This document shows, one piece after another, positions 4,235 through 48,082 of a stretch of 64,000 nucleotides of DNA (positions are counted from its first letter, which is position 1; every line of letters starts with the position of its first letter). The notes beneath the pieces were generated by a model, which was not told where the DNA came from, ran no database searches, and worked only from the letters and a program-made list of their open reading frames with translations. The translations under genes were made by a program, and so were the position numbers. The stretch is from an uncultured beta proteobacterium (GTDB taxonomy: Bacteria > Pseudomonadota > Gammaproteobacteria > Burkholderiales > Usitatibacteraceae): positions 22 through 64,021 of the forward strand of contig CAWGOH010000008.1 of the NCBI GenBank assembly GCA_963824135.1, given 5' to 3'.

Positions 4235-4240
4235 GGGCCT

Positions 4241-14948: not shown

Positions 14949-14992
14949 GGAGGGACTCCTCGTTGTTGTGGTGGCGGTTTGTGGTGCTGCGG

Positions 14993-15929: not shown

Positions 15930-15941
15930 GCGTGGCTCCGG

Positions 15942-21210: not shown

Positions 21211-21215
21211 AAGAC

Positions 21216-21704: not shown

Positions 21705-21712
21705 CGAAGGCC

Positions 21713-23396: not shown

Positions 23397-23397
<1 letters not shown>
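22933..23397 (+). CDS. nuoE: NADH-quinone oxidoreductase subunit E
   Basis: ACRNIACSMRGS..VECLGSCGTAP (2Fe-2S ligands). The GTG start overlaps the nuoD stop (GTGA). Confidence 0.88.
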
Positions 23398-24674
<1,277 letters not shown>

Positions 24675-24687
<13 letters not shown>

Positions 24688-28652: not shown

Positions 28653-28658
28653 CGCGCC

Positions 28659-30537
28659 ATGGGACTGCTCACCCTCATCGTCCTCCTGCCCCTCCTGGGG
28701 TTCGTGCTGAACGGCCTCCTGGGAAACCGCCTGGGCAAGGGCTTCGTGACGGCGGTGGGCTGCGGGATGCCGGCCATCGCCTTCGCGGTGACCATCAAGT
28801 GCTTCCTGGACCTGCAGGGCGGCGGCTGGGCGCCGATCGCCGAGACCGCCTACGTCTGGACGATGGTGGGGCAGGACAGCTTCGAGGTCGCCTTCTGGTT
28901 CGACCGCCTGACGGCGGTGATGGCGCTCATCGTGACCGGCGTGGGCACGCTGATCCACGTCTACTCCACCGGCTACATGCACGAGGACAAGAGCTACGCG
29001 CGCTACTTCGCGTACCTGAACCTCTTCCTCTTCTTCATGCTGCTGCTGGTGCTGGGCAAGTCGCTGCTCGTGCTCTTCGTGGGCTGGGAGGGCGTGGGCC
29101 TGGCTTCCTACCTGCTCATCGGCTTCTGGTTCGGCGACATGGAGAAGGCCGCCGCCGGCAAGAAGGCCTTCATCGTGAACCGGATCGGCGACGCCGGGTT
29201 CCTCCTGGGCATGTTCGTGATCTACTCGGCGGTCGGCACCCTCGACATGCCGCACATCAACCAGGCGTTCACGGGCGGCGCGGTCCCGGCGGTCTCGGCG
29301 AGCCTGGTGGGCCTCCTCCTGTTCATCGGCGCCACCGGCAAGTCGGCGCAGATCCCGCTCTACGTGTGGCTGCCGGACGCCATGGCGGGCCCGACGCCCG
29401 TCTCCGCGCTCATCCACGCGGCCACGATGGTGACGGCGGGCGTGTACCTGGTGGCCCGCATGTCGGGCATCTACCTGAACGCGCCCGAGGCCTCGACGGT
29501 CATCACCGCGGTGGGCGCGCTCACCGCCCTCATGGCCGCCACCATCGCGCTGGCCCAGGACGACATCAAGAAGGTGCTCGCGTACTCGACCGTCTCGCAG
29601 CTCGGGTTCATGTTCGTGGCCCTGGGCGTGGGCGCCTACGGCGTGGCGGTGTTCCACGTCTACACCCACGCGTTCTTCAAGGCCTGCCTCTTCCTGGGCG
29701 CCGGCAGCGTGATCCACGCCATGTCGGGCGAGCAGGACATCAAGAAGATGGGCGGGCCTCGCGAAGAAGATCCCCATCACCTTCTTCACCTTCGCGCTCG
29801 CCACCGCCGCCATCGCCGGCATCCCGCCCCTTGCCGGGTTCTTCTCGAAGGACGAGATCCTCTGGTACGCGCTCGCGAGCGATCGCGGCGGCTCCTGGCT
29901 GCTCCTCGCGGTGATGGCCTCCACGGCGCTGCTCACCGCGTTCTACATGTTCCGCCTGCTGTGGCTCACGTTCTTCGGCAAGCCGCGCATGCTCAAGGAC
30001 GTGGAGCACCACATCCACGAGTCGCCGCCCTCGATGACGGGCGTCCTCGTGGTGCTCGCGCTCCTGTCGGCGGTGGGCGGGTTCCTGTCGATCCCGCACT
30101 TCCTGGAGCCGATGCTGGCCCTGCCCGGCGTGAAGCCCGGCATGGACGCCTTCCACTACTTCGTCGTCGGGGGCTCGATCGCGATCGCCCTGGCGGGCCT
30201 GGCGGGCGCGGCGTTCTTCTTCGGGGGCGAGGCCCTGCCCGCGGCCCGGATCAAGGCGTCCTTCGCGGGCCTGTACCGCGTCCTCAACAACAAGTACTAC
30301 GTCGACGAGTTCTACGACCGGGCCATCAACCGGCCGCTCCTGTGGATCTCGGACGCGGTCTTCCTCAAGGTCGGCGACCGGCTCCTCGTCGACGGCACCC
30401 TGAACGGGCTCGCCGCGCTGGCGCAGCGCGCCGCCGGGCGCCTGTCGCGGGTGCAGACCGGCAGCCTCCACAAGTACGCCTTCATGGTGCTCGCCGGCAT
30501 GGTGGCGAGCCTCGTCTGGATGTGGCGCAATGGCTGA
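28659..30537 (+). CDS. nuoL: NADH-quinone oxidoreductase subunit L (one frame break near 29755)
   Basis: [48 protein letters not shown], then [16 protein letters not shown] and the long amphipathic C-terminus in ORF 29911-30537. Confidence 0.9.
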
Positions 30538-32097
30538 CGGCACGATCCTCTCGCTGGTCCTGTACCTGCCGCTGGCGGGCATGCTCGCCATCGCGGCCCT
30601 TCCCGCGGGACGCGGCGGCGCGGTGCGCGCCCTCACGCTCGCCGTGATGGTCGTGCAGTTCCTCCTCTCGCTCGTCCTGTACGCGAACTTCGACCCGGCG
30701 GTGCCGGGGCTGCAGGCCGCGACGCGCGTGCCGTGGATCCCGGCCTGGGGCGTGAACTACATCATCGGGCTGGACGGCTACAACATCCTGCTGGTGGTCC
30801 TCACGACCTTCCTGGGCCCGCTGGTCACGGCCGGCGCCTTCAGCGCGATCACCAAGGAGGTGAAGCTCTTCTACGCGATGGTCTTCCTCATCCAGTTCGC
30901 GATGCTGGGGACCTTCGTCGCGCAGGACCTGTTCCTGTTCTACCTCTTCTGGGAGGCGATGCTGATCCCGATGTTCCTCATCATCGGCATCTGGGGCGGC
31001 GAGCGGCGCATCTACGCGACGATCAAGTTCTTCCTCTACACGGCCTTCGGCAGCATCCTCATGCTCGCCGCGGTGATCTACCTCGTGTGGTCGCTCTGGA
31101 GCACCACGGGCGTCGAACTCCTTCGCCTTCGCGGACCTCTACAAGGCGAGGCTGCCGCTCGAGACCCAGCAGTGGCTGCTCGCGGCCTTCGCGCTCTCCT
31201 TCGCGATCAAGGTGCCGATGGTGCCCTTCCACACCTGGCTGCCCGACGCCCACGTCGAGGCGCCCACCGCGGGCTCCGTGATCCTGGCCGGCGTGCTCCT
31301 GAAGATGGGGACCTACGGCTTCATGAAGCTGGGCTTCCCGCTCTTCCCGGACGCCACGCGCATGGCGGCCCCGCTCCTCGCGTGGCTCTCGGTGCTCTCC
31401 ATCGTCTACGGCGCCTGCCTCGCCCTCGTGCAGACGGACATCAAGAAGATCATCGCCTACTCCTCCATCAGCCACCTGGGCTACGTGATGCTGGGCCTGG
31501 TGAGCCTGGACCTCCTGGGCATCCAGGGCGCCATCGTGCAGATGGTGAGCCACGGCCTGGTCGCCGCCGGGCTCTTCCTCATGGTCGGGATGATCTACGA
31601 GCGCTGCCACACCCGCGAGCTCGCGGCCTACGGCGGCCTCGCCAAGGTGCTGCCCGGTGTACTCGGTCTTCTTCCTCATCCTCACGCTCGCCTCCGTGGG
31701 CCTGCCCACGACCAGCGGCTTCACCGGCGAGTTCCTCGTGCTCATGGGCGCCTTCAACGCCGCCTGGAAGCCCGGGGCGGTCACGATCCCGCTGGGGGCG
31801 GCGGGCCTCGCGGTCACGGGCGTGGTGCTGGGCGCGCTCTACATGCTGTGGTTCGCGCAGCGCTTCCTCTTCGGCGCCGAGCGCGTGCCGCACGCCCCCG
31901 TGGCGGACCTCGACCTGCGGGAGAAGTCCATCCTCGCGATCCTCGTGGCGGCGGTGTTCTGGCTCGGGCTCTTCCCCGACTCCGCCATGAAGCGCACCGA
32001 GCTCGCCGCGCGCGAGTACCAGGAACTGGTCGCCTCGCCGCGCATCCCCGCGGCGACGAAGCTGACCGGGACGCCCCCGGTGGAGGCGGCGAAATGA
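30530..32097 (+). CDS. nuoM: NADH-quinone oxidoreductase subunit M (two frame breaks near 31110 and 31655)
   Basis: [55 protein letters not shown] and [12 protein letters not shown] lie in three successive frames. Confidence 0.9.
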
Positions 32098-33480
32098 ACT
32101 TCACGGCCGTGCTCCATCGCGATGGCCCCCGAGCACCTGCTGCTCGCGGGCATCGTGAGCCTGCTGGTCCTCGAGATCTTCTCCGACAAGCCCAACGCCG
32201 CGCTGCCGCTCGCGGTGGCCTTCGTGGCCGCGGCCGCGGGAGCGGCGGCCTGGCTGGGATTCACGGGCTACGTGGGCGCCCCGTTCCCGGGCCAGTTCGA
32301 CCTCACGCCGCCGGCCTCCTTCGCCAAGGCGCTGGTGCTCGCGCTGGCGGTGCCGGTGCTCCTTTTCTCGAAGGACGACTTCGGCAGGGGCGAGTTCTAC
32401 CCGCTCATCCTCTCCTCGCTCTACGGCATCTGCCTCCTCGCCTCGGCGGAGAGCTTCCTCACGCTCTTCCTGGGCATCGAGCTCATGTCGATCCCCGTCT
32501 ACGTGCTCGTGCTCCTGGGCTTTCGCCGCCCCGAGAGCGCGGAGGCCGCCCTCAAGTACCTGGTCCTCTCCGGCACGGCGAGCGCCTCGTTCCTCATGGG
32601 CGCCTCGCTCATCTACGGCTCCACCGGATCCCTCGCGCTCGAGAGCTTCGCGCTGGCCATGGGCTCGCCGCGCCTGCTGGCCGGCACGGCCGTCGTGATG
32701 GTCGTCTCGGCGTTCTTCCTGAAGGCCGCGATCGTGCCTTTCCACGGCTGGGCGCCGGACGCCTACGAGGCCGCCAGCGTGCCCTCCACGGCCTTCATGG
32801 CGGTGCTGGTGAAGGTGGGCGTGCTGATCGCCGCGGCGCGCGTCTTCGGGACGGCGCACGTGGCCGAGCCGCTCGCCGGGCTCCTCGCCATCCTGCCGCT
32901 CGCCTCGATCGTGTGGGGCAACCTCGCGGCGATCCGCCAGGCGGGGCTGCGGCGCATGATCGCCTACTCGTCGATCGCGCACGCGGGCTACCTCTTCTTC
33001 GCCTTCCTGGGCGACGGGCCGGGGCGCTTCCAGGCGGTGATGTTCTACCTCGCGGCCTACGGCGTCATGAACCTGCTCGCCTTCGCGGCGCTGCCTTCGC
33101 ACCCGGTGGACGCCGAGCGCGACAAGCTCGACAACCTGAAGGGCCTGTTCCACACGCACCCGCTCGCGGCGCTGCTCATCGGCATGGCGATGCTCTCGCT
33201 CGCCGGCATCCCGCCGTTCCCGGGCTTCATCGGCAAGTTCCTCATCTTCAAGAACGTGATGGCGGCGGGCTACACGACCTACGCCGTGCTGGGCCTGGTG
33301 GGCAGCTACCTCGGCATCTACTTCTACCTGCGCGTGATCCAGTACATGTTCATGACCCCGCAGGCGGCCGCCTCCGGGCACGCGCCCTCGCGCGGCATCG
33401 CCATGGGCGCGAGCCTGCTGTGCCTGGCGGGCTCCATCCTGATCGCGGTCCTGCCGGGCCTCTTCCTCGCCCGGTTCTAG
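32094..33480 (+). CDS. nuoN: NADH-quinone oxidoreductase subunit N (probable frame break near 32115; the uninterrupted ORF starts at 32122)
   Basis: [33 protein letters not shown] and [10 protein letters not shown] motifs. ATG 32094 overlaps the nuoM stop (ATGA), as at the other junctions. Confidence 0.88.
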
Positions 33481-34182: not shown

Positions 34183-34947
34183 GTGAATCCACAGGACATT
34201 CCGGCCCACCTGCGGCCCGAGGGCGGAGCCGCCGCCGCGCGTGCTGCTCGTCGGGCGACGACGCGGGCCGCACGCGCCGCATCGGCGATTACCTGTCGCG
34301 CCACCCGCTGCGGGTCGACCGCGAGCGGCGGGGCGAGGTGGCGCTGGCGCTCGCGCTCGCGCCGGAGCGCGGCCCGGGCCTCGTCGTGATCGAGGCGGAC
34401 GCGCCGGGCCTCGCGGCGCCGGAATTCTGCCGGCGGCTGCGCGCCGGCGGCGGCAGCGCCCCGGTCGTGGTGCTCGCTCGCCACCGGACGACCTGGTCGA
34501 GCAGGTCGCTGTGCCTCGAGCTGGGAGCGGACGCCTGCCTGCCGGGCGACGTACCCGAGCGCCTGCTGTGGGCGCAGCTGAAGGCGATTCTGCGGCGGGC
34601 GCCGGAGCGCGCGCGCGGCGGCGCGGACGAGGGCTCCGAGGTGCCGCGCGGGGGCCTTCGTCCTGGCGCGGCCCGCGATGGCGGTGCGCCGCGGCGAGCG
34701 CAGCGTCGAGCTCACGCCGCACGAGTTCGACTGCGCGTGGCCCTCGCGCGCGCGGCCGGCGCGATCGTGAGCCGCGAGGCGGCCTTCGCGAGGCGATGGG
34801 CCGCGGCGCCCCGTGCGCGATCCGCGAGCGGACGGTCGACGCCTGCATCTCGCGCCTGCGCCGCAAGCTCCTGCGGCTCGACCCGTGCGCGCGGCGCATC
34901 CGCAGCATCCACGGCCGCGGCTACCTGCTCGACGTCGCCGGGCCTGA
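34183..34947 (+). pseudogene. OmpR/PhoB-type response regulator, at least 4 frame breaks; boundaries approximate
   Basis: Receiver-like RVLLVGDDAGRTRRIGDYL..LVVIEADAPG..PVVVLA and wHTH-like ELTPHEFD..IVSREA..RTVDACISRLRRKL..IRSIHGRGYLL are scattered over three frames. There is no in-frame stop before the downstream gene. Confidence 0.5.
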
Positions 34948-35122
34948 GGCTCCCGGGACGAACGGTTCCGGCGCCGGGGCAGGGCGTCCCGCGCGAACAG
35001 GCCGCAACAAAAAAATGCGCGCGGCGGGCCCGCAGGCGATTGTGTTCGCGGCCGGCGTTCGCTATAAATGGCCGCGATGCGTCCGCCCGGTGGGTAGCGG
35101 TTCCAACCACGGGGAGCGAGAC

Positions 35123-37825
35123 ATGAAGAACGGAAGAAGGCCCCTCGCCGCGGCGGTCGCGCGTGCGCTGGGCGTGGCGTGCGCGGTCGCCGCGGCCGGC
35201 CAGGCCGTGGCGCAGGACGCGGCGCAGAAGGTCGAGAAGATCGAGGTCACCGGCTCCAACATCAAGCGCATCGAGGGCGAAGGCTCGCTCCCGGTGACGG
35301 TGATCACCCGCGACGACATCGAGCGCTCCGGCGCCACGACGCCCATGGAGCTGCTCAAGTTCGTGAGCGCCAACAACAGCCTGGGCGACGTCTCGCTCGC
35401 GAACGTGATCGGCTCGGCCACCTTCTCCGCGCAGACGGCGTCGCTGCGCGGCCTGGGCGGCGGGCGCACGCTCGTCCTCGTGAACGGCAAGCGCATCGAC
35501 GGCTTCGCGGGCGAGGTGCAGGGCGTGCAGGGGGTGAACCTCGCGGCCATTCCCTTCTCGGCCATCCAGCGGGTCGAGGTGCTCAAGGACGGCGCCTCGG
35601 CCATCTACGGCTCGGACGCGATCGGCGGCGTGATCAACTTCATCATGCGCTCCGACTACCGCGGCGGGGAGGCGATGGCCTGGTACGGCAGCCCCACGCG
35701 GGCCGGGGGCGGCGAGCAGCTGCGCGCGAGCGGCACCGCCGGCTTCGGCGACCTCTCGAGCGACGGCCACAACGTGGTGTTCTCGCTCTCCTACGACAAG
35801 CAGAAGAGCCTCGACCAGCGCGACCGCAACTTCTCCAACACCTCCTACCGGCCCGAGCTGGGGCTGGTGGCGATCTCCAGCAACAGCTTCCCGGGCCGGA
35901 TCACGACGGGCGGCATCGGCGTGCCCGGTACGCCGGACAACTGCGCGCCCACGACCTACTTCGCCGACCTCGAGGGCTGCTACTACGATCCTTCCGCGAT
36001 CGAGGGCGTGCAGATGGTCCCCGACAACGAGAAGTGGAACTTCTTCGGCTCGGCGCGCTTCCAGCTGAACGCCGACACCCAGGCGTACGCGACGGTGCTC
36101 GCCTCGCGCGACGAGAACCGCTACGTGATCCAGTCGGTGCCGATCTCGAACCTCTTCAACTACGGCCCCAACGGGGACATCCCGGCGACCGTCACCGTGA
36201 GCCCGTCGAGCCCCTTCTACCCCACGGCGCTCGCGCAGGCCGCGGGAGTCGCGGGACAGGTGCTCAACGTGCGCTACCGGGCGGTGGAAAACGGGCTTCG
36301 CGACTCCACCGACACGAACGAGAACGGGCAGGTGGTCGCCGGGCTCAAGGGGGCGTGGAAGGGCTTCGACTGGGATGCCGCCGCGTTCTACAGCCGGGGC
36401 ACGACGAAGAACCACCTGAACGGGGGCTTCCCGCTCTACACGCAGCTGCTCCCGCTGCTCAACGGCGGCACCGTGAACCTCTTCGCGCCCAACACGCCGG
36501 AGGTCGTCGCGCAGCTCCAGGCCACGAACTACGTGGGCGACACCTTCAACGGGACCTCGAAGAACGGCGGCGTGCAGGCCCTGGCCTCCGGGGAGATCGC
36601 GAAGCTCCCGGCCGGGGCCCTCGCGGTGGCCTTCGGCGTCGAGGCGAGGCGCGAGTCCCTGGACCAGGTGCCCGAGCCCGTGCTCGCCACGGGCGACCTC
36701 TCCGGGTTCGGCGGCAACATCCTGCCGGTGCACGTCTCGCGCGACATCCGCGCGGTGTTCGCCGAGATGGTCGTGCCGGTCGCCAAGGGGTTCGAGGCGA
36801 CGCTGGCGCTGCGCAGCGACCATTACAGCGACTTCGGCCGCACGACCAACCCGAAGGCGAGCTTCCGCTGGGAGCCGGACAAGCGGCTGCTGTTCCGCGC
36901 CTCCTACGGGGAAGGCTTCCTCGCCCCTTCGCTCTACCAGCTCTTCACGCCCAACATCTCCGGCGTGACGGCCACGGGGCAATCGGACCCGGTCCGCTGC
37001 CCGGTCACCCAGGACACCGGGCTCGACTGCGAAACGCAGTTCGCGGTCACCTTCGGCGGCAACGCGCAGCTCAAGCCCGAGGAGAGCAAGCAGTGGAGCC
37101 TGGGGTTCGTCACCGAGCCCTTCGCGGGCGCTTCCCTGGGCGTGGACTACTTCAACCTGCGCCTGGACGACGCGATCACCAACGGGATCCCCTACGCCAC
37201 GATCCTGGGCGACCTGGCGCAGTACGGCCACCTCGTCACGCGCGGCGCCCCGGACCCCGCGTTCCCCGGCCTGCCGGGCCGGATCATCGACATCGACCAG
37301 ACCTACATCAACCTGGGTTCGCTGAAGATCGAGGGGATCGACCTCGACTTCCACTACGTGGCGCGCGCGGCCTCGTGGGGAAGCCTGCGCTTCGACCTGG
37401 CGGGCACCTACTACATCCGCTACGACGCCCAGAACTCCGACGGGACCTACTCCGGCTTCGTCTCGAACCAGTACGGCGCGGTCATCACCGGCATCATCCC
37501 CCGGTGGAAGCACTACGCGTCCGTGACCTGGGCGAACGGCCCGTGGTCGGCCACGCTGGGGAACCTCTACCAGTCGAGCTACGTGGACGCGGGGACCGAC
37601 GGCGAGGACAACCTGCGCCGGGTGAGCTCGATGAGCCTGTGGGACGCGCAGGTGGCCTACAAGGGCTGGCGCAACCTCACCCTCACGCTCGGGGTGAAGA
37701 ACGCCTTCGACACCGACCCGCCCCAGTCCAACCAGGGCAACTCCTTCCAGGTGGGCTTCGACCCCTCCTACTACGACTCGCGGGCCCGGTTCGTCTACGG
37801 CAGCGTCGCCTACACGTTCAAATAG
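35123..37825 (+). CDS. TonB-dependent outer-membrane receptor
   Basis: Intact 900-aa ORF. Signal peptide, plug motifs (IEVTGSNIKR, LRGLGGGRTLVLVNGKR, VEVLKDGASAIYGSDAIGGVINF) and a beta-barrel with a C-terminal ..YGSVAYTFK. Confidence 0.9.
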   Translation: MKNGRRPLAAAVARALGVACAVAAAGQAVAQDAAQKVEKIEVTGSNIKRIEGEGSLPVTVITRDDIERSGATTPMELLKFVSANNSLGDVSLANVIGSATFSAQTASLRGLGGGRTLVLVNGKRIDGFAGEVQGVQGVNLAAIPFSAIQRVEVLKDGASAIYGSDAIGGVINFIMRSDYRGGEAMAWYGSPTRAGGGEQLRASGTAGFGDLSSDGHNVVFSLSYDKQKSLDQRDRNFSNTSYRPELGLVAISSNSFPGRITTGGIGVPGTPDNCAPTTYFADLEGCYYDPSAIEGVQMVPDNEKWNFFGSARFQLNADTQAYATVLASRDENRYVIQSVPISNLFNYGPNGDIPATVTVSPSSPFYPTALAQAAGVAGQVLNVRYRAVENGLRDSTDTNENGQVVAGLKGAWKGFDWDAAAFYSRGTTKNHLNGGFPLYTQLLPLLNGGTVNLFAPNTPEVVAQLQATNYVGDTFNGTSKNGGVQALASGEIAKLPAGALAVAFGVEARRESLDQVPEPVLATGDLSGFGGNILPVHVSRDIRAVFAEMVVPVAKGFEATLALRSDHYSDFGRTTNPKASFRWEPDKRLLFRASYGEGFLAPSLYQLFTPNISGVTATGQSDPVRCPVTQDTGLDCETQFAVTFGGNAQLKPEESKQWSLGFVTEPFAGASLGVDYFNLRLDDAITNGIPYATILGDLAQYGHLVTRGAPDPAFPGLPGRIIDIDQTYINLGSLKIEGIDLDFHYVARAASWGSLRFDLAGTYYIRYDAQNSDGTYSGFVSNQYGAVITGIIPRWKHYASVTWANGPWSATLGNLYQSSYVDAGTDGEDNLRRVSSMSLWDAQVAYKGWRNLTLTLGVKNAFDTDPPQSNQGNSFQVGFDPSYYDSRARFVYGSVAYTFK

Positions 37826-39595: not shown

Positions 39596-40571
39596 ATGAG
39601 TCTCGCCAAGTGCAGGCACGCAGTGGGTTTGATCGCATCGGCAGCCATGCTGGCGGCCATGCCGGTTTCCGCGCAGAAGTACCCGGACAGGACGATCACC
39701 ATGATCGTCCCCTTCGGCGCCGGCGGCTCCACCGACATCGTCGGCCGCATCGCCGCTGAAGCCATGTCCAGGTCCCTGGGCGTTTCCGTGATCGTGGAGA
39801 ACCGGGGCGGCGCCGGCGGCACGGTCGGCACGCAGGCGGCGGCCAACGCGGCGCCCGACGGCTACACGATCACGATGGCGACGACGAGCACCCACGTCGT
39901 GGGCCCGCTCACCGTCGAGACGGTCAAGTACGACCCGGTCAAGGACTTCGAGCCCGTCGGCATGATCGCGGAGACGCCGTACGTCCTGGTGGTGAGCCCC
40001 AAGCTCGCCGTGAATTCGGTCAAGGAACTGATCGACTACGCGAAGAAGAACCCGGGCAAGCTCAACTACGGCTCCGCCGGACAGGGCTCCACCACGCACC
40101 TGGCGGGCCTCATGTTCCTGGACGCGACGGGCACGAAGATGGAGCACGTCCCGTACAAGAGCAACGCCGACTCGACCAAGGCGGTGATGACCGACGAGGT
40201 GCAGGTGCTCTTCGGCTCCATGCCGGCGGTGCTCGCGCAGATCAAGGCGGGCACCATCAAGGCCCTGGCGGTCGGCTCCACGGTCCGCTCGCCCGAGCTG
40301 CCCGACGTGATGACCATGCAGGATGCCGGCGTCCCCGGCTATCGCGCGACCCTCTGGCTGGGCCTTTCGGCGCCCGCCAGGACCCCCGCCAGCGTGATCG
40401 ACCCGCCTGAGCGCGGCGCTGGACCAGGCCCTGGCGGAACCGGCGGTGGCCAAGCGCCTTTCGGCCGCCGGCGCGGAGCCCTCGAAGATGACTCCCGCCG
40501 AGTTCGGCAAGCTGATCTCCAGCGAAATGGGCGTGTACGGCAAGATCGTGGCCGGGATGAAGAAGAAGTGA
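39596..40571 (+). CDS. Bug-family (TctC-like) substrate-binding protein (one frame break near 40395)
   Basis: Signal peptide plus YPDRTITMIVPFGAGGSTDIVGR..ENRGGAGGTVG..PDGYTITM..NYGSAGQGSTTHLAG..VPYKS. The C-terminus MTPAEFGKLISSEMGVYGKIV is in the next frame. Confidence 0.8.
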
Positions 40572-41266
40572 CCGCTTCCAGCGCCGGTTTCGTCTTCCAG
40601 CCCGTCGAGGCGCCCAGCCTTCCGGTGCGCGGCTCGGCGTTGCGGCTCCCCGTGAACCGCATCTACTGCATCGGCCGCAACTACGAGGCGCACGCGGTGG
40701 AAATGGGGCACGACCCCAGCAAGGAGCCGCCGTTCTTCTTCCAGAAGAACCCGGGCAACCTCCTGTGCGGCCGGGATTTTCCCTATCCCCCGGAGACCTC
40801 CGACGTCCATCACGAGATCGAGATGGTCGCCGCGCTCTCGAAGGGCGGGAAGAACATCGCCGTCGCCGACGCGCTCGGCCACGTCTTCGGCTACGGCGTG
40901 GGCCTGGACATGACCCGCCGCGACCTGCAGGGCGAGGCGAAGAAGCTCGGCCGCCCCTGGGAGGTCGGCAAGGCGTTCGAGCACTCCGCGCCCTGCAGCG
41001 AGATCGTCCCGGCGAGCGAGATCGGCCACCCGGACCACGGCGCCATCTGGCTCAAGGTCAACGGGGAGGTCCGCCAGAAGGGCGACCTCAACCAGATGAT
41101 CTGGAAGACGGCCGAGCAGGTCGCGATCCTGTCCCGGTACTTCGAGCTCCAGCCCGGCGACGTCATCTTCACCGGGACGCCCTCGGGCGTGGGCCCCGTC
41201 AAGCGCGGCGACGAGATGGAGGGGTTCGTGGAGGGGGTCGGCAGCCTGCAACTGCGGGTCGTGTAG
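40568..41266 (+). CDS. Fumarylacetoacetate hydrolase (FAH) family protein (acylpyruvate/fumarylpyruvate hydrolase-like)
   Basis: Intact 232 aa. RIYCIGRNYEAHAVEMG, HHEIEMVAAL, GYGVGLDMTRRDLQ and PGDVIFTGTPSGVG are FAH-fold motifs. The GTG start overlaps the Bug gene stop (GTGA). Confidence 0.85.
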   Translation: MTASSAGFVFQPVEAPSLPVRGSALRLPVNRIYCIGRNYEAHAVEMGHDPSKEPPFFFQKNPGNLLCGRDFPYPPETSDVHHEIEMVAALSKGGKNIAVADALGHVFGYGVGLDMTRRDLQGEAKKLGRPWEVGKAFEHSAPCSEIVPASEIGHPDHGAIWLKVNGEVRQKGDLNQMIWKTAEQVAILSRYFELQPGDVIFTGTPSGVGPVKRGDEMEGFVEGVGSLQLRVV

Positions 41267-41428
41267 GCCCGCGCCCCGGGAACGCGCGAAGCCCGCCCCG
41301 CCCGGGCTTGCGTGCGGGCCCCGGGTTGGCCTAAGCTCCCCCGGCAAGAAGTGCGCACAGGGTCCTAGGGACCCCGCGAGGGCCGTAGCCGTCGCAAGCA
41401 ACAACGAGAGCCTGGGAGGGTTTACAAG

Positions 41429-42280
41429 ATGAGCTCAAGCAAGTACGGCAGCAAACTCGACACGCAGATCGACGATTATCTCCTCGCCGCCAGCGGGCAC
41501 CTGAAGGAGACCACGAAGCCGGCCGCCGGCCGGGGCGCGGTGGCCTTCGGCGCCGCCGCGAGCTCCGCGCTCGCCATGATGTCCCAGGCCGAGGCGGCCG
41601 TCGTGGTGAACGGCGGGTCGCCTCTTCCGGTCACGGTCTTCAACGGGGCCGGAACCACCTCGATCAGCGGGGACATGATGGGGCGGCGGCTCGATGTGGA
41701 CGGCAACGGAGTCTTCGATTTCGCCATCTGGGGCTACTCCACGCAAGGGAACGTCGGCATGGCCGCGGGCAACGTCAACGCGTCCATGATCGGTGGCGGC
41801 AGCGACGACCTGCTGAAGCTCTCCGCCGGCGCGACGATCGGGCCCGCCCGGCCCGCGACTTCCTGGACCCAGAGCGTGATGGGCACGGGGAACGATATCG
41901 CGTTCAGTGTCGGGAACGGCGCCAACAACTGGTCCGGCGGGGTGGGGGAGTTCGGCTTCGTCGGGGTCCGGTTCGACAACGCCTCCGGCACCCACTACGG
42001 CTGGGTATGCCTGCGTTCCGACCCCTCGGTCCCCAGCCAGATCACGGCCGTGGCATACGCCTTCGAGTCCGTCGCCGACACGATGATCCTGGCGGGCGAT
42101 ATCGGGTCCGGCGGGCCCAGGGCCTGCGATGCGGCTCTCGGCGCCTTGGGCGGCGCCAACGCGGTTCCCGCCATCGGGCCGGTTGCCTACGGACTGACGG
42201 CCCTGGCGCTCGGCGCCCTCGGGATGGGCGGCCTGCGCCGCCGCCGCGAAGGTCTGAAGCCCGTCAACACGGCGCACTGA
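41429..42280 (+). CDS. Secreted protein with a PEP-CTERM-like (V-P-x-x-x-P variant) C-terminal sorting signal
   Basis: Intact 283 aa. N-terminal signal-like AVAFGAAASSALAMMSQAEA, core motif GFVGVRFDNASGTHYGWVCL, and C-terminus VPAIGP + VAYGLTALALGALGMGGL + RRRRE. GGGAGGG lies 8 nt before the ATG. Confidence 0.65.
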   Translation: MSSSKYGSKLDTQIDDYLLAASGHLKETTKPAAGRGAVAFGAAASSALAMMSQAEAAVVVNGGSPLPVTVFNGAGTTSISGDMMGRRLDVDGNGVFDFAIWGYSTQGNVGMAAGNVNASMIGGGSDDLLKLSAGATIGPARPATSWTQSVMGTGNDIAFSVGNGANNWSGGVGEFGFVGVRFDNASGTHYGWVCLRSDPSVPSQITAVAYAFESVADTMILAGDIGSGGPRACDAALGALGGANAVPAIGPVAYGLTALALGALGMGGLRRRREGLKPVNTAH

Positions 42281-42302
42281 CCCCCAGGGGGCCGCCGGAT
42301 CG

Positions 42303-42336
42303 AATGCCCCAGGCCCGCGCCTGGGGCATTTTCGTT
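42303..42336 (+). terminator. Strong intrinsic terminator/attenuator between the sorted-protein gene and the sulfotransferase gene
   Basis: Perfect 12-bp stem AATGCCCCAGGC-ccgc-GCCTGGGGCATT followed by TTCGTT. Confidence 0.65.
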
Positions 42337-42367
42337 CCGGTGCCCGGATTCCGCCTCGAGGCCTTCG

Positions 42368-45325
42368 ATGAACCCAGACACTCCGAAGCGCAAGGTCCTT
42401 CTCATCGGCTGGGATGCCGCCGACTGGAAGATCATGACGCCCCTGATGGAGCAGGGGCACATGCCCAACCTCGCGCGCCTCGTGGAGCGCGGCGTCATGG
42501 GCAACCTGGCGACCTTGCATCCCGTGCTCTCGCCCATGCTCTGGACGAGCATCGCGACGGGCAAGCGCCCGTTCAAGCACGGCATCCTCGGCTTCACGGA
42601 GCCGACTCCCGACGGGGGGGCGGTCCAGCCGGTCAGCCAGCTCTCGCGCACGACCAAGGCCATCTGGAACATCCTGAACCAATCGGGATACCGGAGCGGG
42701 GTGGTGGGCTGGTGGCCCAGCCATCCGGTCGAGGCCATCAACGGCTCCATGGTCTCGAACCACTTTCACCATGCCGTGGGCCCGCCGGACCAGCCGTGGC
42801 CGCTGCCTTCCGGAGCGGTGCATCCGGAACGCGTGTCGGAAGCCCTGGCGGAGCTGCGCTTCAACCCGAACGAGCTCGTCCCGGAAGAGGTGCTGCCCTT
42901 CGTCCCCAGGGCGCTGGAGATCGACCAGGGGAAGGACCGCCGGCTGGCCTCGGTGATGAAGATCCTGGCCGAGTGCATCACGATGAACAACGCGGCGACC
43001 TGGCTCATGCAGAACGAGCCCTGGGACTTCTTCGCGGTGTACTTCGACGCCATCGACCACTTCTGCCACGCCTTCATGCGCTATCACCCGCCGCGCCAGG
43101 ACTGGATCGGCGAGCGCGACTTCGAGCTCTACTCGGGCGTGGTCAATGCCGGCTACCGGTTCCACGACATGATGCTGGGCGCGCAGCTCAGCCTCGTGGA
43201 CGAGGACACGACGGTGATCATGTGCTCGGACCACGGATTCCATCCCGACCACATGCGGCCGCGCCAGATTCCCAAGGAACCGGCCGGCCCCGCGGTGGAG
43301 CACCGGGACCTGGGCATGCTGGTGATCGCCGGTCCCGGCATCAGGAAGGACGAGCTGATCCACGGGGCGACGCTGCTCGACGTCACGCCGACGATCCTCG
43401 CGCTGCTGGGGCTGCCGGTAGGCGAGGACATGGACGGCAAGCCGCTTCTCCAGGCGTTCGAGACGCCGCCTGAGGTGACTCGCGTTCCGAGCTGGGACGC
43501 CATCTCCGGCGACGACGGGCGCCACTCCGTGACCCTGCGGCAGGACCCGCTCGCCGCCAAGGCGGCGCTCGACCAGCTCGTGGCGCTGGGCTATGTCGAG
43601 GCCCAGGGCGAGGACCAGGCCGACGCGGTCTCCCGCTGCGTGGCGGAGATGCGCTACAACCTGGCGCGCTCTTACATGGACGCCGACCTGCATCCCCAGG
43701 CGATCCCGATCCTCACGGAACTGGGCGAGTCCTACCCGGAGGAAATCCGCTTCGGCACGCAGCTCGCCCTGTGCCTGCGCGCCGTCGGCGATACGCCGGG
43801 CCTGCGCCTGCTGGTCGAGAAGATGCGGCAGTCGCGCTCGGTCATGGCCCGGCGCGCGCAGGAGAAGCTGGCGGAGATTCGCGGGACGCTCAAGGAGCGC
43901 CTCGCGGCGCGCAAGTCGGGACGGGAGAAAGCCGTTGCGGAAGGCGGCCCCGCGCCGAAGGCCGCGACGGGCGAGGAGGAGGACCGGCTGCTCTCGCCGA
44001 AGGAGCGCGAGGAGCTCGATCGCTGGCGCTACGTGAGGAACACCACCACCTACGACCTCGACTTCCTCATGAGCTGCGTCCTTCTCGACGAGGACAATCC
44101 GGAGGAGGCGCTGGCCTACCTGGCGAAGGCGGGCGAGGCCCAGCCCGACCGCCCGGGCCTGCACATCCAGGTCGGCGAGGCCTACCTCAAGCTGCGAAGG
44201 GCGCCGGAGGCCGAGGAGTCGTACCGGAAGGCGCTCGCCATCGACCCGCTGAATTTCCACGCCCACCTGGGGGTGGCGCGCGCGAGCCTGCGCCAGCGCC
44301 GCTACGAGGAGGCCGCGGCGCAGGCGCTGGAGACGGTGCGGCTCATGTTCCACTATCCGATGGCTCACTTCGTCCTCGGCAACGCGCTGTTCCGGCTCCG
44401 CCGCATCGACGCGGCCGAGCGCTCGCTCAATCTCGCCCTCGAGCTCAACCCGAATTTCATCGAGGCGCACCGGATGCTGATGTCGCTCTACCGGTTCTGG
44501 AAGCCGGACCCCGTCGCCTTGAGAAAGCACCGCAAGGCCGTGGCGGAGCTGCGCCGCATGAATCTCAGGGGCAAGGAAGCGGGGCTCGCGGCGATGGCGG
44601 CGGAGTTCGCCGAGGCGCCCACGGGCGAGCATGACGAGCCGGGACTGTTGCCGGACGGGGCGCAGGCGCCCGAGCCGGAAGGGTCGGCCGGAATCAGTCG
44701 CCTGCCGGACGACGGGGCGCCCGCCGACTTCGTCACCGTGGTGGCGGGCCTGCCGCGCTCCGGGACCTCGATGCTCATGCAGATGCTCGATGCGGGCGGA
44801 ATGCGGATCTTCACCGACCGCAAGCGCGAGGCCGACGAGGACAATCCGAGGGGCTATTTCGAGACCGAGAAGGCCACCCAGCTGCGCAAGAACCGGGACT
44901 GGGTCCGCGAGGCGACGAACATGGGCGTCAAGATCGTGGCCCAGCTGCTGCCCTACATGCCCCGGGAGGTGCCCGTCCGCGTCGTCTTCATCGAGCGCGA
45001 TCTCGACGAGGTCCTGGCCTCGCAGAAGACGATGCTCGAAAGAAGGAAGCGGCCCGACGGCAAGTTCGCGGACGAGCAGATCAGGGCCGCGTTCTCCCGC
45101 CAGCTGACGATCGTCAAGCGCTGGCTGGCCCGCAACCCCAATGCCTGGACGCTGTACGTCCAGCACCGCGATGTCGTCCGCGATCCCCGTGCCGCCGCGA
45201 CGGCGATCAGCGAGTTCCTCGGCGGCCGCCTGGACGTGGAAGCGATGGTCCGGGCGGTCGATCCCTCCCTGTACCGGCAGCGCGCGCGGGCGGATGCCCG
45301 CGGCGGCATGGCCGTACCCTCCTGA
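42368..45325 (+). CDS. Three-module protein: alkaline-phosphatase-superfamily (type I phosphodiesterase/NPP-like) domain, TPR repeats, C-terminal sulfotransferase domain
   Basis: Intact 985 aa. N-terminus KVLLIGWDAADWKIM..LSPMLWTSIATGK..SDHGFHPDHM (AlkP/NPP-like). Middle has TPR-like helices (YNLARSYMD.., AYLKLRRAPEAEESYRKALAIDP). C-terminus VVAGLPRSGTSMLMQML (PAPS 5'-phosphosulfate loop) and VVFIERDLDEVLAS. Confidence 0.8.
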   Translation: MNPDTPKRKVLLIGWDAADWKIMTPLMEQGHMPNLARLVERGVMGNLATLHPVLSPMLWTSIATGKRPFKHGILGFTEPTPDGGAVQPVSQLSRTTKAIWNILNQSGYRSGVVGWWPSHPVEAINGSMVSNHFHHAVGPPDQPWPLPSGAVHPERVSEALAELRFNPNELVPEEVLPFVPRALEIDQGKDRRLASVMKILAECITMNNAATWLMQNEPWDFFAVYFDAIDHFCHAFMRYHPPRQDWIGERDFELYSGVVNAGYRFHDMMLGAQLSLVDEDTTVIMCSDHGFHPDHMRPRQIPKEPAGPAVEHRDLGMLVIAGPGIRKDELIHGATLLDVTPTILALLGLPVGEDMDGKPLLQAFETPPEVTRVPSWDAISGDDGRHSVTLRQDPLAAKAALDQLVALGYVEAQGEDQADAVSRCVAEMRYNLARSYMDADLHPQAIPILTELGESYPEEIRFGTQLALCLRAVGDTPGLRLLVEKMRQSRSVMARRAQEKLAEIRGTLKERLAARKSGREKAVAEGGPAPKAATGEEEDRLLSPKEREELDRWRYVRNTTTYDLDFLMSCVLLDEDNPEEALAYLAKAGEAQPDRPGLHIQVGEAYLKLRRAPEAEESYRKALAIDPLNFHAHLGVARASLRQRRYEEAAAQALETVRLMFHYPMAHFVLGNALFRLRRIDAAERSLNLALELNPNFIEAHRMLMSLYRFWKPDPVALRKHRKAVAELRRMNLRGKEAGLAAMAAEFAEAPTGEHDEPGLLPDGAQAPEPEGSAGISRLPDDGAPADFVTVVAGLPRSGTSMLMQMLDAGGMRIFTDRKREADEDNPRGYFETEKATQLRKNRDWVREATNMGVKIVAQLLPYMPREVPVRVVFIERDLDEVLASQKTMLERRKRPDGKFADEQIRAAFSRQLTIVKRWLARNPNAWTLYVQHRDVVRDPRAAATAISEFLGGRLDVEAMVRAVDPSLYRQRARADARGGMAVPS

Positions 45326-45335
45326 AAGGCCTGTC

Positions 45336-45875
45336 GTGAGAAAGCTCCTCCTGCTCGTCCTGGTCGCCGCGGGCCTCGCCGCCGTGGCGGCCGACAAGAC
45401 CGCCCCCGCTCCGAAGTCCGTTTCGCCGTCCCCGGCCGAAAAGGGCTGGAAGGCGATCCGCTGCCTCGGGGACGACGACGGCAACGGAAAGCTCTCGCGC
45501 GACGAGGTCGCCAGGATCGATCCCGCGCCCGTCCGGGTGTTGAGCAGGCAGTTCGACGCGATCGACGCGAACCGCGACGGCGTGATCACCTTCGAGGAAT
45601 TCCGCGACCATACCCAGGGAATCCGCGACAAGTGGGAGGCGTCCTTCCGCGAGGCGGACACGGACCGCAGCGGCGGGCTTTCCAAGGCGGAGCTGGCGAA
45701 GTCCCAGGACGGGAGCTTCGGCCAGATCAAGGCGCGCTTCGAGCAGATGGACGCCGACAAGGACGGACAGGTCACCCTGCAGGAGCGGGACCGGTACCTG
45801 AAATCGGCCGGCGAGGATGCGAGGCGCCGACGCCTCGAACCCAAGGCCGATCCCGCCCGGAAGGCGCAGCCGTAG
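45336..45875 (+). CDS. Secreted calcium-binding protein with four EF-hand loops
   Basis: GTG start 10 nt after the upstream stop. Signal peptide [16 protein letters not shown]. Loops [36 protein letters not shown] and [12 protein letters not shown]. Confidence 0.8.
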
Positions 45876-45877
45876 AA

Positions 45878-47322
45878 CCGCGCATCGTCGCGGTCGGGGG
45901 CGAGGGCGGGTCGGCCTCCATCGGCCGGATCCTGCTCGAGTCGGGGCGCCGCGATTTCGTCGTCGAGGACTTCGATCGCCGCGACCCCGGGGCCGGCGGC
46001 ATGGCGGCGGCGTGGAGGGCGGACATCGCCATCGTCGTGATCGAAGCTCCCGAAGGATTGCGGGAGCGGGCGCGGCGGGACCTCTACCTGGCATCGCTGC
46101 TGCGCATCCCGCGCATCGTGCTCGCGGTCGACCGGATGGACCGGGTGGGCTATGCGCAGGACGCCTTCCGCCGGATCGAAACGGACTGCGGTGCCTTCGC
46201 ATCCCGGATCGGCCTCGCGCGTTTCGCGTGCGTCCCGATCAGCTCCGCCCGCGGCGACAACGTCGCCTCGCCGCAGGGCAATACCCCGTGGTACGAGGGA
46301 CCGACGCTTCTGGGGCACCTGGATTCGGCGCCCGTCGACGATCCGGCGGCCACCGTGCCGGTCGCGGGCGATCCCGTCACCGTCGCGGACCAGTTCGAGG
46401 CCACCGTCGTCTGGATGGGCGGGGAGCCGCTGCTGCGCGGCCGCGAGTACCTGCTGGAGATCGGCGGCAGGACCGTCGCCGCCACCGTCGCGCCGCATCA
46501 AGTACCGGATCGACGTGGACACGCAGGAGCGTCTGGCCGCCGAACAGGCTCGAGCGGGACGAGATCGGCGTGTGCGAGCTGGAGCTCGGCCAGCCGATCG
46601 CATTCGAGCCTCACGCCGTCAACCGCGAACGGGGCCGCTTCGTCCTGCTCGACGGGATCACGCGCGTGGCGGTGGGCGCCGGCGTGCTCCACTTCGCCCT
46701 GAGGCGCTCGCAGAACGTCCATTGGCAATCGGTCGACATCGACCGCCGCGCGCGCGCCTCGCTCAAGGGCCAGCGGCCGGTCGTGGTGTGGTTCACGGGC
46801 CTGTCGGGCGCGGGCAAGTCGACCATCGCCAACCTGGTGGAGAAGAAGCTGCACGCGCTCGGCCGGCACACCTACCTGCTGGACGGCGACAACGTGAGGC
46901 ACGGTCTCAACAAGGACCTGGGCTTCACCGCCGAGGACCGGGTGGAGAACATCCGGCGGGTGGCCGAGGTGGCCGCGCTGATGGCCGACGCGGGCCTGGT
47001 GGTGCTGGCGGCCTTCATCTCGCCTTTCCGCAGCGAACGCCGCATGGCGCGGGCCTTGCTGCCCGAGGGCGAGTTCGTCGAGGTGTTCATCGACACGCCG
47101 CTGGAAGTGGCGGAGGCCCGCGACGCGAAGGGGCTGTACCGGAAGGCTCGTCGCGGCGAGCTCGCGAACTTCACCGGAATCGACTCGCCGTACGAGCGCC
47201 CCGAGGCCGCGGAGATCACGATCCCGGGAGCCCTTTGCGGGCCCGAGGAGGCCGCGGAGCGGATCGTCGCGGAACTGCAGCGCCGGGGCGTCACCCGCGC
47301 CGCGATCGGCCGGGAGGCGTAG
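45878..47322 (+). CDS. cysC: Degenerate, shortened CysN-like domain fused to adenylylsulfate (APS) kinase; two frame breaks near 46495 and 46545; N-terminal boundary uncertain
   Basis: C-terminal half [46 protein letters not shown] is canonical CysC. The N-terminal half aligns to CysN ([41 protein letters not shown]-like RVAVGAG) but has GGEGGSAS in place of the GxxxxGKS P-loop. No start codon occurs after the EF-hand stop. Confidence 0.75.
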
Positions 47323-47326: not shown

Positions 47327-48082
47327 GTGGATCCGGCGCTCCTCGAGGAGGTGATCGCCCTTGCCCGGGCCGCGGGCGAGGCCATCCTGGGCGTCTACGC
47401 CACGGACTTCGCCGTGCGCGAGAAGGCGGATGCGTCCCCCGTGACGATGGCCGACGAAATGGCGGAGGCGGTGATCCTCCGGGGACTGGCGTCGCTCGCG
47501 CCCGCGATCCCCGTGGTCTCGGAGGAGGCGGCATCCGCCGGGCGGGCGCCCGCGGTCGGGCAGGCATTCTGGCTTGTCGATCCCCTCGACGGGACGAAGG
47601 AGTTCGCCAGCCGCAACGGCGAGTTCACCGTCAACATCGCTCTCGTCGAGAACGGCCTGCCGGTCCTCGCCGTGGTGCACGCCCCGGCGCTCGCGCGCCT
47701 CTATGCGGGCCTCGAAGGAGGCGGCGCGAAGGCCGAGGACGCGAGCGGCAGCAGGCCGATCCGCGCGCGTGCGATTCCCGGGGAGGGAATGACCGTCGTC
47801 TCCAGCCGTTCCCACGGCGACGCCGAGGCGCTGGCGCGCCACCTGGCCGGCCGCAAGGTGGCCGCTTCGGCGCGCGCGGGATCCTCGCTCAAGTTCTGTC
47901 TCGTGGCCGAGGGGAAGGCGGACCTCTATCCCCGCTTCGGACGCACGATGGAATGGGACACGGCCGCCGGTCACGGGGTGCTGCGCGCGGCGGGCGGGCG
48001 GGTGGTCGACCTCGAGGGCCGCGAACTGCGGTACGGCAAGCCCGGCTTCGCCAATCCCCACTTCCTCGCCTTCGGCGCCTGA
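47327..48082 (+). CDS. cysQ: 3'(2'),5'-bisphosphate nucleotidase (PAP phosphatase)
   Basis: Intact 251 aa. KADASPVTMAD, WLVDPLDGTKEF and MEWDTAAGHGVL are inositol-monophosphatase-fold/CysQ motifs. GTG start 4 nt after the upstream stop. Confidence 0.85.
   Translation: MDPALLEEVIALARAAGEAILGVYATDFAVREKADASPVTMADEMAEAVILRGLASLAPAIPVVSEEAASAGRAPAVGQAFWLVDPLDGTKEFASRNGEFTVNIALVENGLPVLAVVHAPALARLYAGLEGGGAKAEDASGSRPIRARAIPGEGMTVVSSRSHGDAEALARHLAGRKVAASARAGSSLKFCLVAEGKADLYPRFGRTMEWDTAAGHGVLRAAGGRVVDLEGRELRYGKPGFANPHFLAFGA

Follow-up and report, generated by a model that had tools for sequence, protein, structure and literature searches.

What does a bacterium do with one polypeptide that joins a phosphatase-like domain, a repeat array and a sulfotransferase? 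The question is raised by a 985-residue open reading frame (ORF) at 42368..45325 on the forward strand of a 64,000-nucleotide stretch of DNA, hereafter the window (contig CAWGOH010000008.1, assembly GCA_963824135.1), from an uncultured beta proteobacterium of the Usitatibacteraceae. From the letters alone, the original prediction had described it as a fusion of an alkaline phosphatase (AlkP) superfamily domain, tetratricopeptide repeats (TPR) and a sulfotransferase dependent on 3'-phosphoadenosine 5'-phosphosulfate (PAPS), which could serve either donor turnover or a two-step modification of one substrate. We find that the gene usually lies beside a gene for an exported protein with a sorting tag, which points to a dedicated tailoring enzyme for that protein: the family may sulfate its neighbour and carry out a phosphoester step on it before export, a reading to which we give a little less than an even chance. 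What is new is the two-gene module, an enzyme with sorting-tag cargo whose tag is swapped between phyla; no such module was found in the curated model libraries or the literature searched.

The gene itself is genuine. The window has a G+C content of about 70% and long ORFs are common in it; one of 1722 residues (41435..46603, reverse strand) runs antisense to the partner gene upstream, the enzyme gene and an EF-hand gene downstream, so that ORF length alone is no evidence of a gene. This antisense frame is a shadow ORF typical of high-GC DNA, and its apparent homologs at other loci are enzyme genes read on the opposite strand. The enzyme ORF starts with ATG and its codon-position GC (0.70/0.46/0.92) follows the pattern of a real high-GC gene; its Pfam matches are above threshold, and more than 120 full-length homologs (50-88% identity, 98-100% coverage, 940-1010 residues) have the same Pfam content. 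The intact frame and every motif quoted for it (LLIGWDAADW, LSPMLWTSIATG, CSDHGFHPDHM, GLPRSGTS, FIERDLDEVLAS) are as first described. The window had also been called rich in frame breaks, and rightly: the CysN-like/APS-kinase, nuo and TctC ORFs are affected, and apparent gene fusions do occur. That error-prone assembly joined separate genes here through frame errors is nevertheless refuted, to a degree that leaves it practically no credence, because the 940-1010-residue architecture recurs at 80 further genome loci and in over 120 full-length homologs that are independent and stem from many different assemblies and sequencing technologies.

The three modules proposed for the product are upheld by Pfam, AlphaFold2 and Foldseek together. 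All Pfam assignments exceed the curated thresholds: residues 10-293 match PF01663 (Phosphodiest), a stretch around 565-710 matches several TPR models, and one around 791-964 matches Sulfotransfer_3/Sulfotransfer_1. The whole-protein AlphaFold2 model, built from a 39-sequence alignment (mean predicted local distance difference test score, pLDDT, 84.8; predicted template modelling score 0.69), resolves an alpha/beta part (1 to about 410), an all-helical part (417-748), a segment with pLDDT below 50 (742-771) and a compact alpha/beta part (780-976); compared with known structures, these return the AlkP, TPR and sulfotransferase folds. Neither the sequence nor the model contains a signal peptide or a transmembrane helix, and the homologs all open with M-x6-KVLLIGWDAADW, which leads straight into the first beta-strand. 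The enzyme is thus predicted to be soluble and cytoplasmic, and PAPS is a cytoplasmic metabolite.

The N-terminal domain (residues 1-410; 42368..43597, forward strand, like all the segments of the enzyme below) was placed by Pfam, conservation and Foldseek. Whether it belongs to the AlkP superfamily at all had been left as a point to check, and the answer is positive: PF01663 matches at E 5e-27 (95.7 bits, cut-off 23), with only positions 1-223 of the 342 in the profile taken up, and the AlkP fold is matched as well. Seven residues are invariant in 39 homologs (S55, D227, H231, D288, H289, H292 and H312), with D16 nearly so. S55 aligns with the nucleophile threonine of phosphonoacetate hydrolase PhnA (PSFTNPNN in 3SZY) and of the nucleotide pyrophosphatase/phosphodiesterase (NPP) of Xanthomonas, Xac NPP (PSLTFPNH in 2GSN), which we take to be T64 and T90; the position is alanine in other PDB entries of the two enzymes (3T02, 7MW8). 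The segment S-D288-H289-G aligns with VSDHGM of NPP. Among the proposed metal ligands, D16 and D288-H289 align with those of PhnA and NPP, and D227-x3-H231 and H312 were assigned from motif spacing and invariance only.

Fold comparison alone does not place the domain within its superfamily: Foldseek gives a probability of 1.0 to choline sulfatase, BT1918, ENPP3 and Xac NPP, and sulfatases and NPPs are about equal (target-normalised TM 0.25-0.46). A formylglycine sulfatase (PF00884) was considered and rejected, the (C/S)-x-P-x-R motif being missing from the nucleophile context L-S55-P-M-L-W. Together with the much weaker match to PF00884 than to PF01663, the S55 alignment and the best matches of the domain profile among PDB sequences (phosphonoacetate hydrolase and Xanthomonas NPP, marginal at E 5e-5), this puts the domain on the NPP/PhnA side. 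It is probably an active, two-metal phosphoesterase or phosphotransferase with a serine nucleophile. With Xac NPP and PhnA it shares the alpha/beta AlkP fold, the nucleophile position before an x8-T-G turn and a putative D...D-x3-H...D-H...H metal-ligand pattern; it differs from them in that (i), its nucleophile is serine rather than threonine; (ii), it is predicted to be cytoplasmic and matches only the first two thirds of the PF01663 profile; (iii), it has a large family-specific insert (residues about 130-215); and (iv), it is fused to the TPR and sulfotransferase modules.

The central region (residues 417-748; 43616..44611) is all-helical, with a long coiled helix (476-524) and about eight TPR-like helix pairs, of which the Pfam TPR models match residues 565-710; pLDDT is mostly above 85. 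Its structural and PDB sequence matches are the TPR domains of OGT and SPINDLY and consensus TPR proteins. OGT and SPINDLY, whose TPR arrays give the top structural match, likewise carry a TPR superhelix and a transferase on one chain, and they set an architectural precedent, since a TPR array placed before the catalytic domain handles their protein substrates. The likeness is one of analogy and not of homology: the window enzyme has no GT41 domain, carries out other chemistry and places two catalytic domains on either side of its TPR region. An acidic, proline-rich and disordered tether (residues 742-771; 44591..44680), with poorly conserved alignment columns, leads on to the last module.

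This module is a compact domain of about 200 residues (780-976; 44705..45295), identified as a PAPS-type sulfotransferase by Pfam (PF13469, 44.4 against 27; PF00685, 29.8 against 22), AlphaFold2 (pLDDT 87 when modelled alone) and Foldseek. The 5'-phosphosulfate-binding (5'-PSB) loop P796-R-S-G-T-S801 is invariant or nearly so in 39 sequences, with P796, R797, G799, T800 and S801 fully invariant, and an invariant R877/S885 pair, eight residues apart on strand 870-876 and helix 879-892 of the model, is assigned to the 3'-phosphate-binding (3'-PB) site from sequence and secondary-structure position. Catalytic bases of sulfotransferases are histidine in SULT and StaL, and glutamate in TPST and the heparan sulfate (HS) sulfotransferases. 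No invariant histidine is present in this domain among the 39 aligned homologs, and the candidates for the base are D817, D823 and E832 of an invariant acidic loop (D817..R820..D823..N826-P-x-G-Y830-x-E832). Both catalytic domains look competent, as their motif sets are invariant, D16 nearly so, in the 39 homologs, whose identities range from about 50 to 88%.

By fold, the domain is closest to Teg12 (E 6.5e-7). There are 61 PDB matches at E ≤1e-3, and all 50 of those listed have the sulfotransferase fold, with Teg12, Teg14 and StaL first, then retinol dehydratase, cytosolic SULTs, Stf0, TPST and HS sulfotransferases; Teg12, Teg14, StaL, SULTs and TPST are matched at a probability of 1.0. A profile search of PDB sequences retrieves SULT1C2 and others. 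Membership in the TPST/RaxST family was rejected: TPST1/2 match domain-profile residues 12-33 only (E 0.02-0.1), and TPST stands 31st or lower in the fold search. The domain nevertheless has in common with Teg12/Teg14/StaL, TPST1/2 and RaxST the P-loop-like fold, the 5'-PSB motif PRSGT[ST] and the R...S of the 3'-PB site, and its 5'-PSB segment GLPRSGTSMLMQML resembles that of TPST; unlike them, it is only about 200 residues long, lacks a conserved histidine and is tethered to TPR and AlkP modules. RaxST is itself cytoplasmic and sulfates the co-encoded RaxX before secretion, with PAPS from dedicated genes (PMC4646787, PMC6637879). The putative substrate of the window enzyme does not resemble a ribosomally synthesized and post-translationally modified peptide but is a sorted surface protein of 200-300 residues.

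This protein is the product of the gene directly upstream of the enzyme (41429..42280, forward strand; GC3 0.88), a gene that the original prediction passed over along with the APS kinase and CysQ-like genes downstream, and thus with the main context of the ORF. The 283-residue exported product has a long N-terminal leader (LDTQIDDYLLAASGHLKE) followed by an Ala/Ser-rich h-region that ends in AEA, the motifs D-x-D-G-N-G-x-x-D-F and GFVGVRF...HYGW, and a PEP-CTERM-like tail (PAIGPVAYGLTALALGALGMGGLRRRRE). Neither Pfam nor NCBIfam has a match for it, and the variant tail of its clade, PxxGPxAYGL...RRRR, is recognised by no PEP-CTERM model. It can be aligned with the immediate upstream neighbours of three enzyme homologs, chosen for their long contigs. 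In 84 sequences (the window and loci L001-L083), an iterated search with hidden Markov models (HMMs; jackhmmer) finds a member of the partner family at 59 loci. Where at least 900 nt of upstream sequence exist, the partner is present at 50 of 69 loci, and 40 of these 50 have it upstream of the enzyme, within 1.5 kb and in the same orientation, even though flanks of 8 kb on either side were open to the search. In an all-against-all BLAST clustering of the locus ORFs, it is the only widely conserved neighbour, and partner and enzyme homologs were found on the same contigs. An iterated profile could attract unrelated PEP-CTERM proteins through a shared tail; against this, the members with a type IX secretion system (T9SS) tag match through the passenger (HMM positions 23-243), and the positional bias is strong. 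In several genomes the partner gene is repeated in tandem, with two to four copies immediately preceding a single enzyme gene (L001, 5927-7904; L005, 5942-7904; proteins P0132, P0135, P0141 and P0142). In the cultured Rubritalea spongiae KCTC 12906 (L076) the partner lies downstream of the enzyme; Maioricimonas sp. JC845 (L016) is another cultured carrier.

Members of the family have a signal-like N-terminus, often after L-D-x-x-L-x-x-Y, a mature start A-(I/V)-(I/V)-Y-S-G and the motifs DxDGDGxxDF, GFxGVxF...YGW and WAYE...I.AG. The leader tyrosine of LDxxLxxY was considered as a sulfation site and rejected, as it is present in about half of the sequences and the acidic residues before it are inconsistent. 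Their tags belong to known systems (PEP-CTERM/exosortase, IPTL-CTERM and T9SS C-terminal domains): of 34 members, models assign 18 to PEP-CTERM, 5 to IPTL-CTERM, 3 to Por_Secre_tail and 2 to Soli_cterm. IPTL-CTERM occurs in Nitrospirota and delta-proteobacteria, the T9SS Por_Secre_tail in Bacteroidota and Soli_cterm in two Bryobacterales. The tag is thus swapped by lineage while the enzyme stays, meaning that the enzyme is tied to the cargo and not to one sorting machine. We found no paper or curated model linking a cytoplasmic AlkP/sulfotransferase enzyme to the PEP-CTERM, IPTL-CTERM or T9SS systems, and no exosortase was seen among the ORFs scanned, which covered parts of the window. The partner is weakly similar to the PEP-CTERM cargo floc_PepA and NF038129, every score falling well short of the family cut-offs. 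ZepA, a PEP-CTERM zinc exoprotein with a conserved context (PMC10957091), was set aside as another family in another neighbourhood with no sulfotransferase.

Two lineages depart from this pattern. Four Bryobacterales genes upstream of the enzyme (L046, 4648-6006; L069, 5599-6873; L078, 5528-6826; L020, 6625-8010) share with the partner family only their N-terminal 70-95 residues or so (DLDRRLEAYF...NWQxYAAV...). In L046 and L020 the shared leader is followed by IPT/TIG and a Solibacter-specific C-terminal domain (TIGR03437), and a glycine-rich tract comes next in all four; the partner leader thus seems to be a movable module. In Bacteroidota, the full-size partner bears the T9SS tag instead, and a stand-alone ORF of 63-96 residues lies immediately upstream of the enzyme at all five loci (L054, 792-1040; L063, 635-826; L070, 7706-7996; L073, 7175-7432; L082, 622-828). 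These mini-ORFs lack both a signal peptide and a passenger domain; what they contain is a PEP-CTERM-like peptide (GSLGLLALGYKGLLAWR; consensus (E/D/N)GSLG(L/V/I)LA(L/I/M)G(Y/F)(K/R/Q)G(L/V)xAWR), and an HMM built from the five retrieves the PEP-CTERM tails of partners in other phyla (E down to 2e-5). This suggests that the enzyme has some connection with the tail peptide itself, which may be a ligand of the TPR region.

The enzyme is not always a single chain. In L070 the AlkP-TPR part (673 residues) and the sulfotransferase (186 residues) are separate adjacent ORFs (7989-10598), and L087 has an orthologous stand-alone sulfotransferase at a distance of 2 kb from the AlkP-TPR gene (184-750 and 2821-4818). 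L085 encodes an AlkP-TPR protein with no sulfotransferase domain, from a complete gene (4001-6037) inside a 175-kb contig, and L086 a second; both genes lie directly downstream of a PEP-CTERM gene, and no sulfotransferase gene was seen nearby at either locus. These split and reduced forms make AlkP-TPR plus partner the core of the system, and the sulfotransferase a frequent, usually fused, addition. A fusion of AlkP with Methyltransf_28 (MidA/NDUFAF7-like; P0147, L084 6001-8394), at the top of a representative search, was rejected as a domain swap; it comes from a single long-read contig of 2x coverage, its methyltransferase starts at profile position 50, the junction falls in a low-complexity linker, and it is probably a chimera or a deletion.

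In the window, the partner and the enzyme open a same-strand run that continues with an EF-hand gene, a CysN-like/APS-kinase gene and a CysQ-like gene, with gaps of at most about 90 nt. APS kinase makes PAPS from adenosine 5'-phosphosulfate (APS), and CysQ removes the product 3'-phosphoadenosine 5'-phosphate (PAP); the presence of both types of gene in the cluster therefore supports a working PAPS-dependent sulfotransferase. The first (45878..47322, forward strand; frame shifts near 46.56-46.62 kb) encodes a CysN-like domain fused to APS kinase, with partial matches to GTP_EFTU, a GTP-eEF1A_C match and APS_kinase at E 1.5e-68. Its APS-kinase P-loop (GLSGAGKST) is intact; that of the CysN-like part is degenerate (GGEGGSAS against GxxxxGKS), no CysD gene is adjacent, and this part may be a non-catalytic remnant. 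The second (47327..48082, forward strand) belongs to the inositol-monophosphatase family (PF00459, E 3.6e-52), and its identity as the PAP phosphatase CysQ is suggested by family and context. Elsewhere, such adjacency recurs only in L074, with an APS kinase, and in L040, where a CysQ homolog lies directly downstream. Other recurrent neighbours (an ABC transporter, a halogenase-like protein and a paralogous AlkP/TPR protein) occur at no more than 8 of 82 loci and are not part of the system.

The EF-hand gene (45336..45875, forward strand) starts with GTG 11 nt past the enzyme stop and encodes a secreted calcium-binding protein of about 179 residues with a signal-peptide-like N-terminus (Pfam EF-hand, E 3e-19; weak XopAW- and lanmodulin-like matches). 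Its orthologs lie directly downstream of the enzyme only in L001 (10969-11511) and L004 (10810-11466), the closest clade to the window. Taken with the DxDGDG motif of the partner, this neighbour hints at a role for calcium. Between the partner and enzyme genes, a GC-rich hairpin (AAUGCCCCAGGC-CCGC-GCCUGGGGCAUU, then UUUCGUU; 42304..42336, forward strand) folds at -49.7 kcal/mol (z -2.9). A simple scan for sigma-70 and terminator consensus sequences did not call it and found nothing. A GC hairpin with a U-run stands at this place in four of seven loci (the window; L004, about 7922-7946; L005, about 7937-7968; L044, about 7925-7966) and was not found at L001, L011 and L057. It may be a leaky terminator or attenuator, with partial termination after the partner gene, and a hairpin so placed is what one would expect where an enzyme gene of lower abundance comes after an abundant structural gene. 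Sigma-54 promoters have been reported for some PEP-CTERM genes; one upstream of the partner was rejected, with 42 matches against 53 expected by chance and none in the intergenic stretch 41267-41428.

How widespread, and how well known, is such an enzyme? A scan with a degenerate pattern, one genome per species, finds relatives in at least 561 species genomes of about 10 phyla (Gamma-, Beta-, Alpha- and Delta-proteobacteria, Planctomycetota, Verrucomicrobiota, Acidobacteriota, Nitrospirota, Bacteroidota, Cyanobacteria and Armatimonadota). The loci analysed are the 80 best-scoring matches and not a random sample, with ORFs called mechanically, and these matches are full length in every case where the contig is long enough. 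Searched exhaustively, a profile of the AlkP domain only gives 4121 clusters (50% identity) at E ≤1e-30. The architecture is therefore common but uncharacterised, and its sequences are already in databases under generic names ('alkaline phosphatase family protein'; 'predicted AlkP superfamily phosphohydrolase/phosphomutase / TPR'). NCBIfam holds no model for it, giving sub-threshold TPR matches only (e.g., PrsT and MamA); sequence and fold searches of the PDB return no characterised protein with the AlkP-TPR-sulfotransferase arrangement, the full-length profile matching mostly TPR proteins there and the single domains only marginally; and literature searches (PEP-CTERM with sulfotransferase, COG3379, TPR with sulfotransferase) found nothing on the enzyme family. 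The original statement that no characterised protein could be named thus holds for NCBIfam, the PDB and the literature searched, bearing in mind that the arrangement, with at least 561 species genomes, is not rare.

What, then, could the enzyme do? We consider it quite probable that the two domains are both enzymatically active and that their function is coupled to the partner gene. That the partner is also the acceptor is a more tentative proposal, with odds slightly on the wrong side of even. The TPR superhelix would bind an unfolded or terminal segment of the newly made partner, for which the leader and the PEP-CTERM-like tail are candidate handles, and would present it to the two catalytic centres before or during export. 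The tethered C-terminal domain would move sulfate from PAPS to a hydroxyl on the partner; in the window organism, PAPS could come from the adjacent APS kinase and PAP be cleared by the adjacent CysQ-like enzyme. The NPP/PhnA-type domain, working through a covalent intermediate at Ser55, would form or cleave a phosphate ester on this substrate. The modified residue, the chemistry of the AlkP domain and modification before export are what we infer. The idea of a TPR-held substrate, part of one of the two functions first put forward, fits the conserved neighbour gene, the identity of the acceptor being our inference. The proposal is not unprecedented in outline: bacterial operons were predicted in which a sulfotransferase with PAPS synthetase acts on co-encoded secreted proteins (Iyer, Aravind et al., 2010; PMC2938197). 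Those operons share with our proposal the notion of a sulfotransferase that, with PAPS genes, modifies a co-encoded secreted protein; they are built on 2-oxoglutarate-Fe dioxygenases and collagen-like or tail-collar proteins, without AlkP, TPR or sorting-tag cargo.

Several points weigh against the partner as the acceptor of a tailoring enzyme. The assignment is drawn from synteny and analogy. We know of no characterised precedent for a cytoplasmic NPP-type domain acting on a protein, and modification before export would be unusual, Sec substrates being normally exported unfolded and unmodified. No serine, threonine or tyrosine is invariant across the whole partner family, and at 19 of 69 loci there is neither a partner nor a PEP-CTERM tail within 4 kb. 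PAPS genes are rarely adjacent (3 of 84 loci), and the fold matches of the sulfotransferase (TM about 0.5) do not separate peptide-phenol, small-molecule, sugar and tyrosyl-protein acceptor classes. We are more doubtful still of the fullest form of the proposal, namely that this widespread cytoplasmic system is the first known post-translational tailoring enzyme dedicated to PEP-CTERM, IPTL-CTERM and T9SS surface proteins, that a leader or tail peptide bound by the TPR array guides the sulfation and the addition of a phosphoester-derived group before export, and that the Bacteroidota mini-proteins are recognition peptides.

Alternatively, the acceptor might be a cytoplasmic molecule other than a protein. 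Sugar-nucleotides, lipid-linked glycans, polysaccharides and lipid head groups are examples, and the product would be a surface polymer or anchor, sulfated, phospho-substituted or both, to which the partner binds or becomes attached afterwards. We give this possibility about one chance in four. The missing conserved hydroxyl and the loci that lack a partner both speak for it, and the Ca-binding-like DxDGDG motifs of the partner, with the EF-hand neighbour, would suit an anionic sulfated matrix. In a comparable way, ethanolamine-phosphate transferases of the glycosylphosphatidylinositol pathway, which belong to the PF01663 family, build the acceptor for a C-terminal transamidation. PEP-CTERM proteins are classically tied to exopolysaccharide loci, as relayed in a later paper (Haft, 2006, via PMC10957091), and PAPS sulfotransferases make sulfated bacterial exopolysaccharides such as synechan (PMC8205485). 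The locus ORF clustering and gene lists, however, contain no glycosyltransferase, polysaccharide-export or lipid-synthesis gene as a conserved neighbour; a TPR array typically binds protein or peptide; the enzyme is predicted to be soluble, without a membrane segment; and it follows one cargo family through four tags, including that of T9SS with its different attachment chemistry.

A narrower role for the AlkP domain, the other function first put forward, would leave the sulfotransferase as the sole tailoring activity, with the NPP-like domain hydrolysing PAP, PAPS or APS so as to relieve product inhibition or control donor supply. NPP-family enzymes are established to cleave nucleotide pyrophosphate and phosphosulfate bonds, and the two domains are fused in most family members. 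The idea lost ground with L085 and L086, where an AlkP-TPR protein lacking the sulfotransferase still lies beside a PEP-CTERM gene, which argues against an AlkP domain that solely recycles the nucleotide of a sulfotransferase. A CysQ-type gene for PAP is moreover already present in the window cluster, the helical/TPR region of about 330 residues and the low-confidence linker of about 30 keep the two domains apart in the model, and hydrolysing the donor beside the transferase would be wasteful; donor turnover is accordingly improbable in our estimate, at roughly one chance in eight. Less probable again is a cytoplasmic receptor, holdase or regulator that reads the leader or tail of the partner and uses its catalytic domain or domains as ligand sensors, coupling export or sorting to metabolic state. 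The stand-alone tail peptides at all five Bacteroidota loci do look more like a binding ligand than like cargo, and the Bryobacterales genes share only the N-terminal 90 residues or so of the partner; yet the catalytic and cofactor-binding residues of both domains are all invariant across more than 10 phyla, which is unusual for pure sensors.

The rest of the window contains a nuo operon, TctC-family genes, catabolic enzymes and two-component systems. Apparent frame breaks and fusions fall at 21191-33480, 13974-15941 and 39596-41266: NuoF and NuoG domains share one 1067-residue ORF, three separate Proton_antipo_M fragments (NuoL/M/N type) are present, and TctC is fused in-frame twice, once to a 2-hydroxyacid dehydrogenase and once to an FAA hydrolase. 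The ORF of a TonB-dependent receptor (plug and barrel, 34241-37825) has a Trans_reg_C fragment at its N-terminus, where a further frame break has probably joined it to a regulator gene upstream. Since essential respiratory genes are among those hit, the frame breaks are most likely assembly indels rather than pseudogenes.

To our knowledge, bacterial protein sulfation is known from very few cases. Here is a large enzyme family with two intact catalytic domains and a candidate substrate encoded next door. Were the fullest form of our proposal true, protein sulfation would be no curiosity of Xanthomonas but common in environmental bacteria of about 10 phyla. With the partner as acceptor, the module would provide a new pre-export modification route for surface proteins of soil, sediment and wastewater bacteria; if the acceptor is instead a glycan or a lipid, it would point to an unrecognised sulfated or phosphorylated component of the envelope. 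In either case, the annotation 'alkaline phosphatase family protein' understates the gene.

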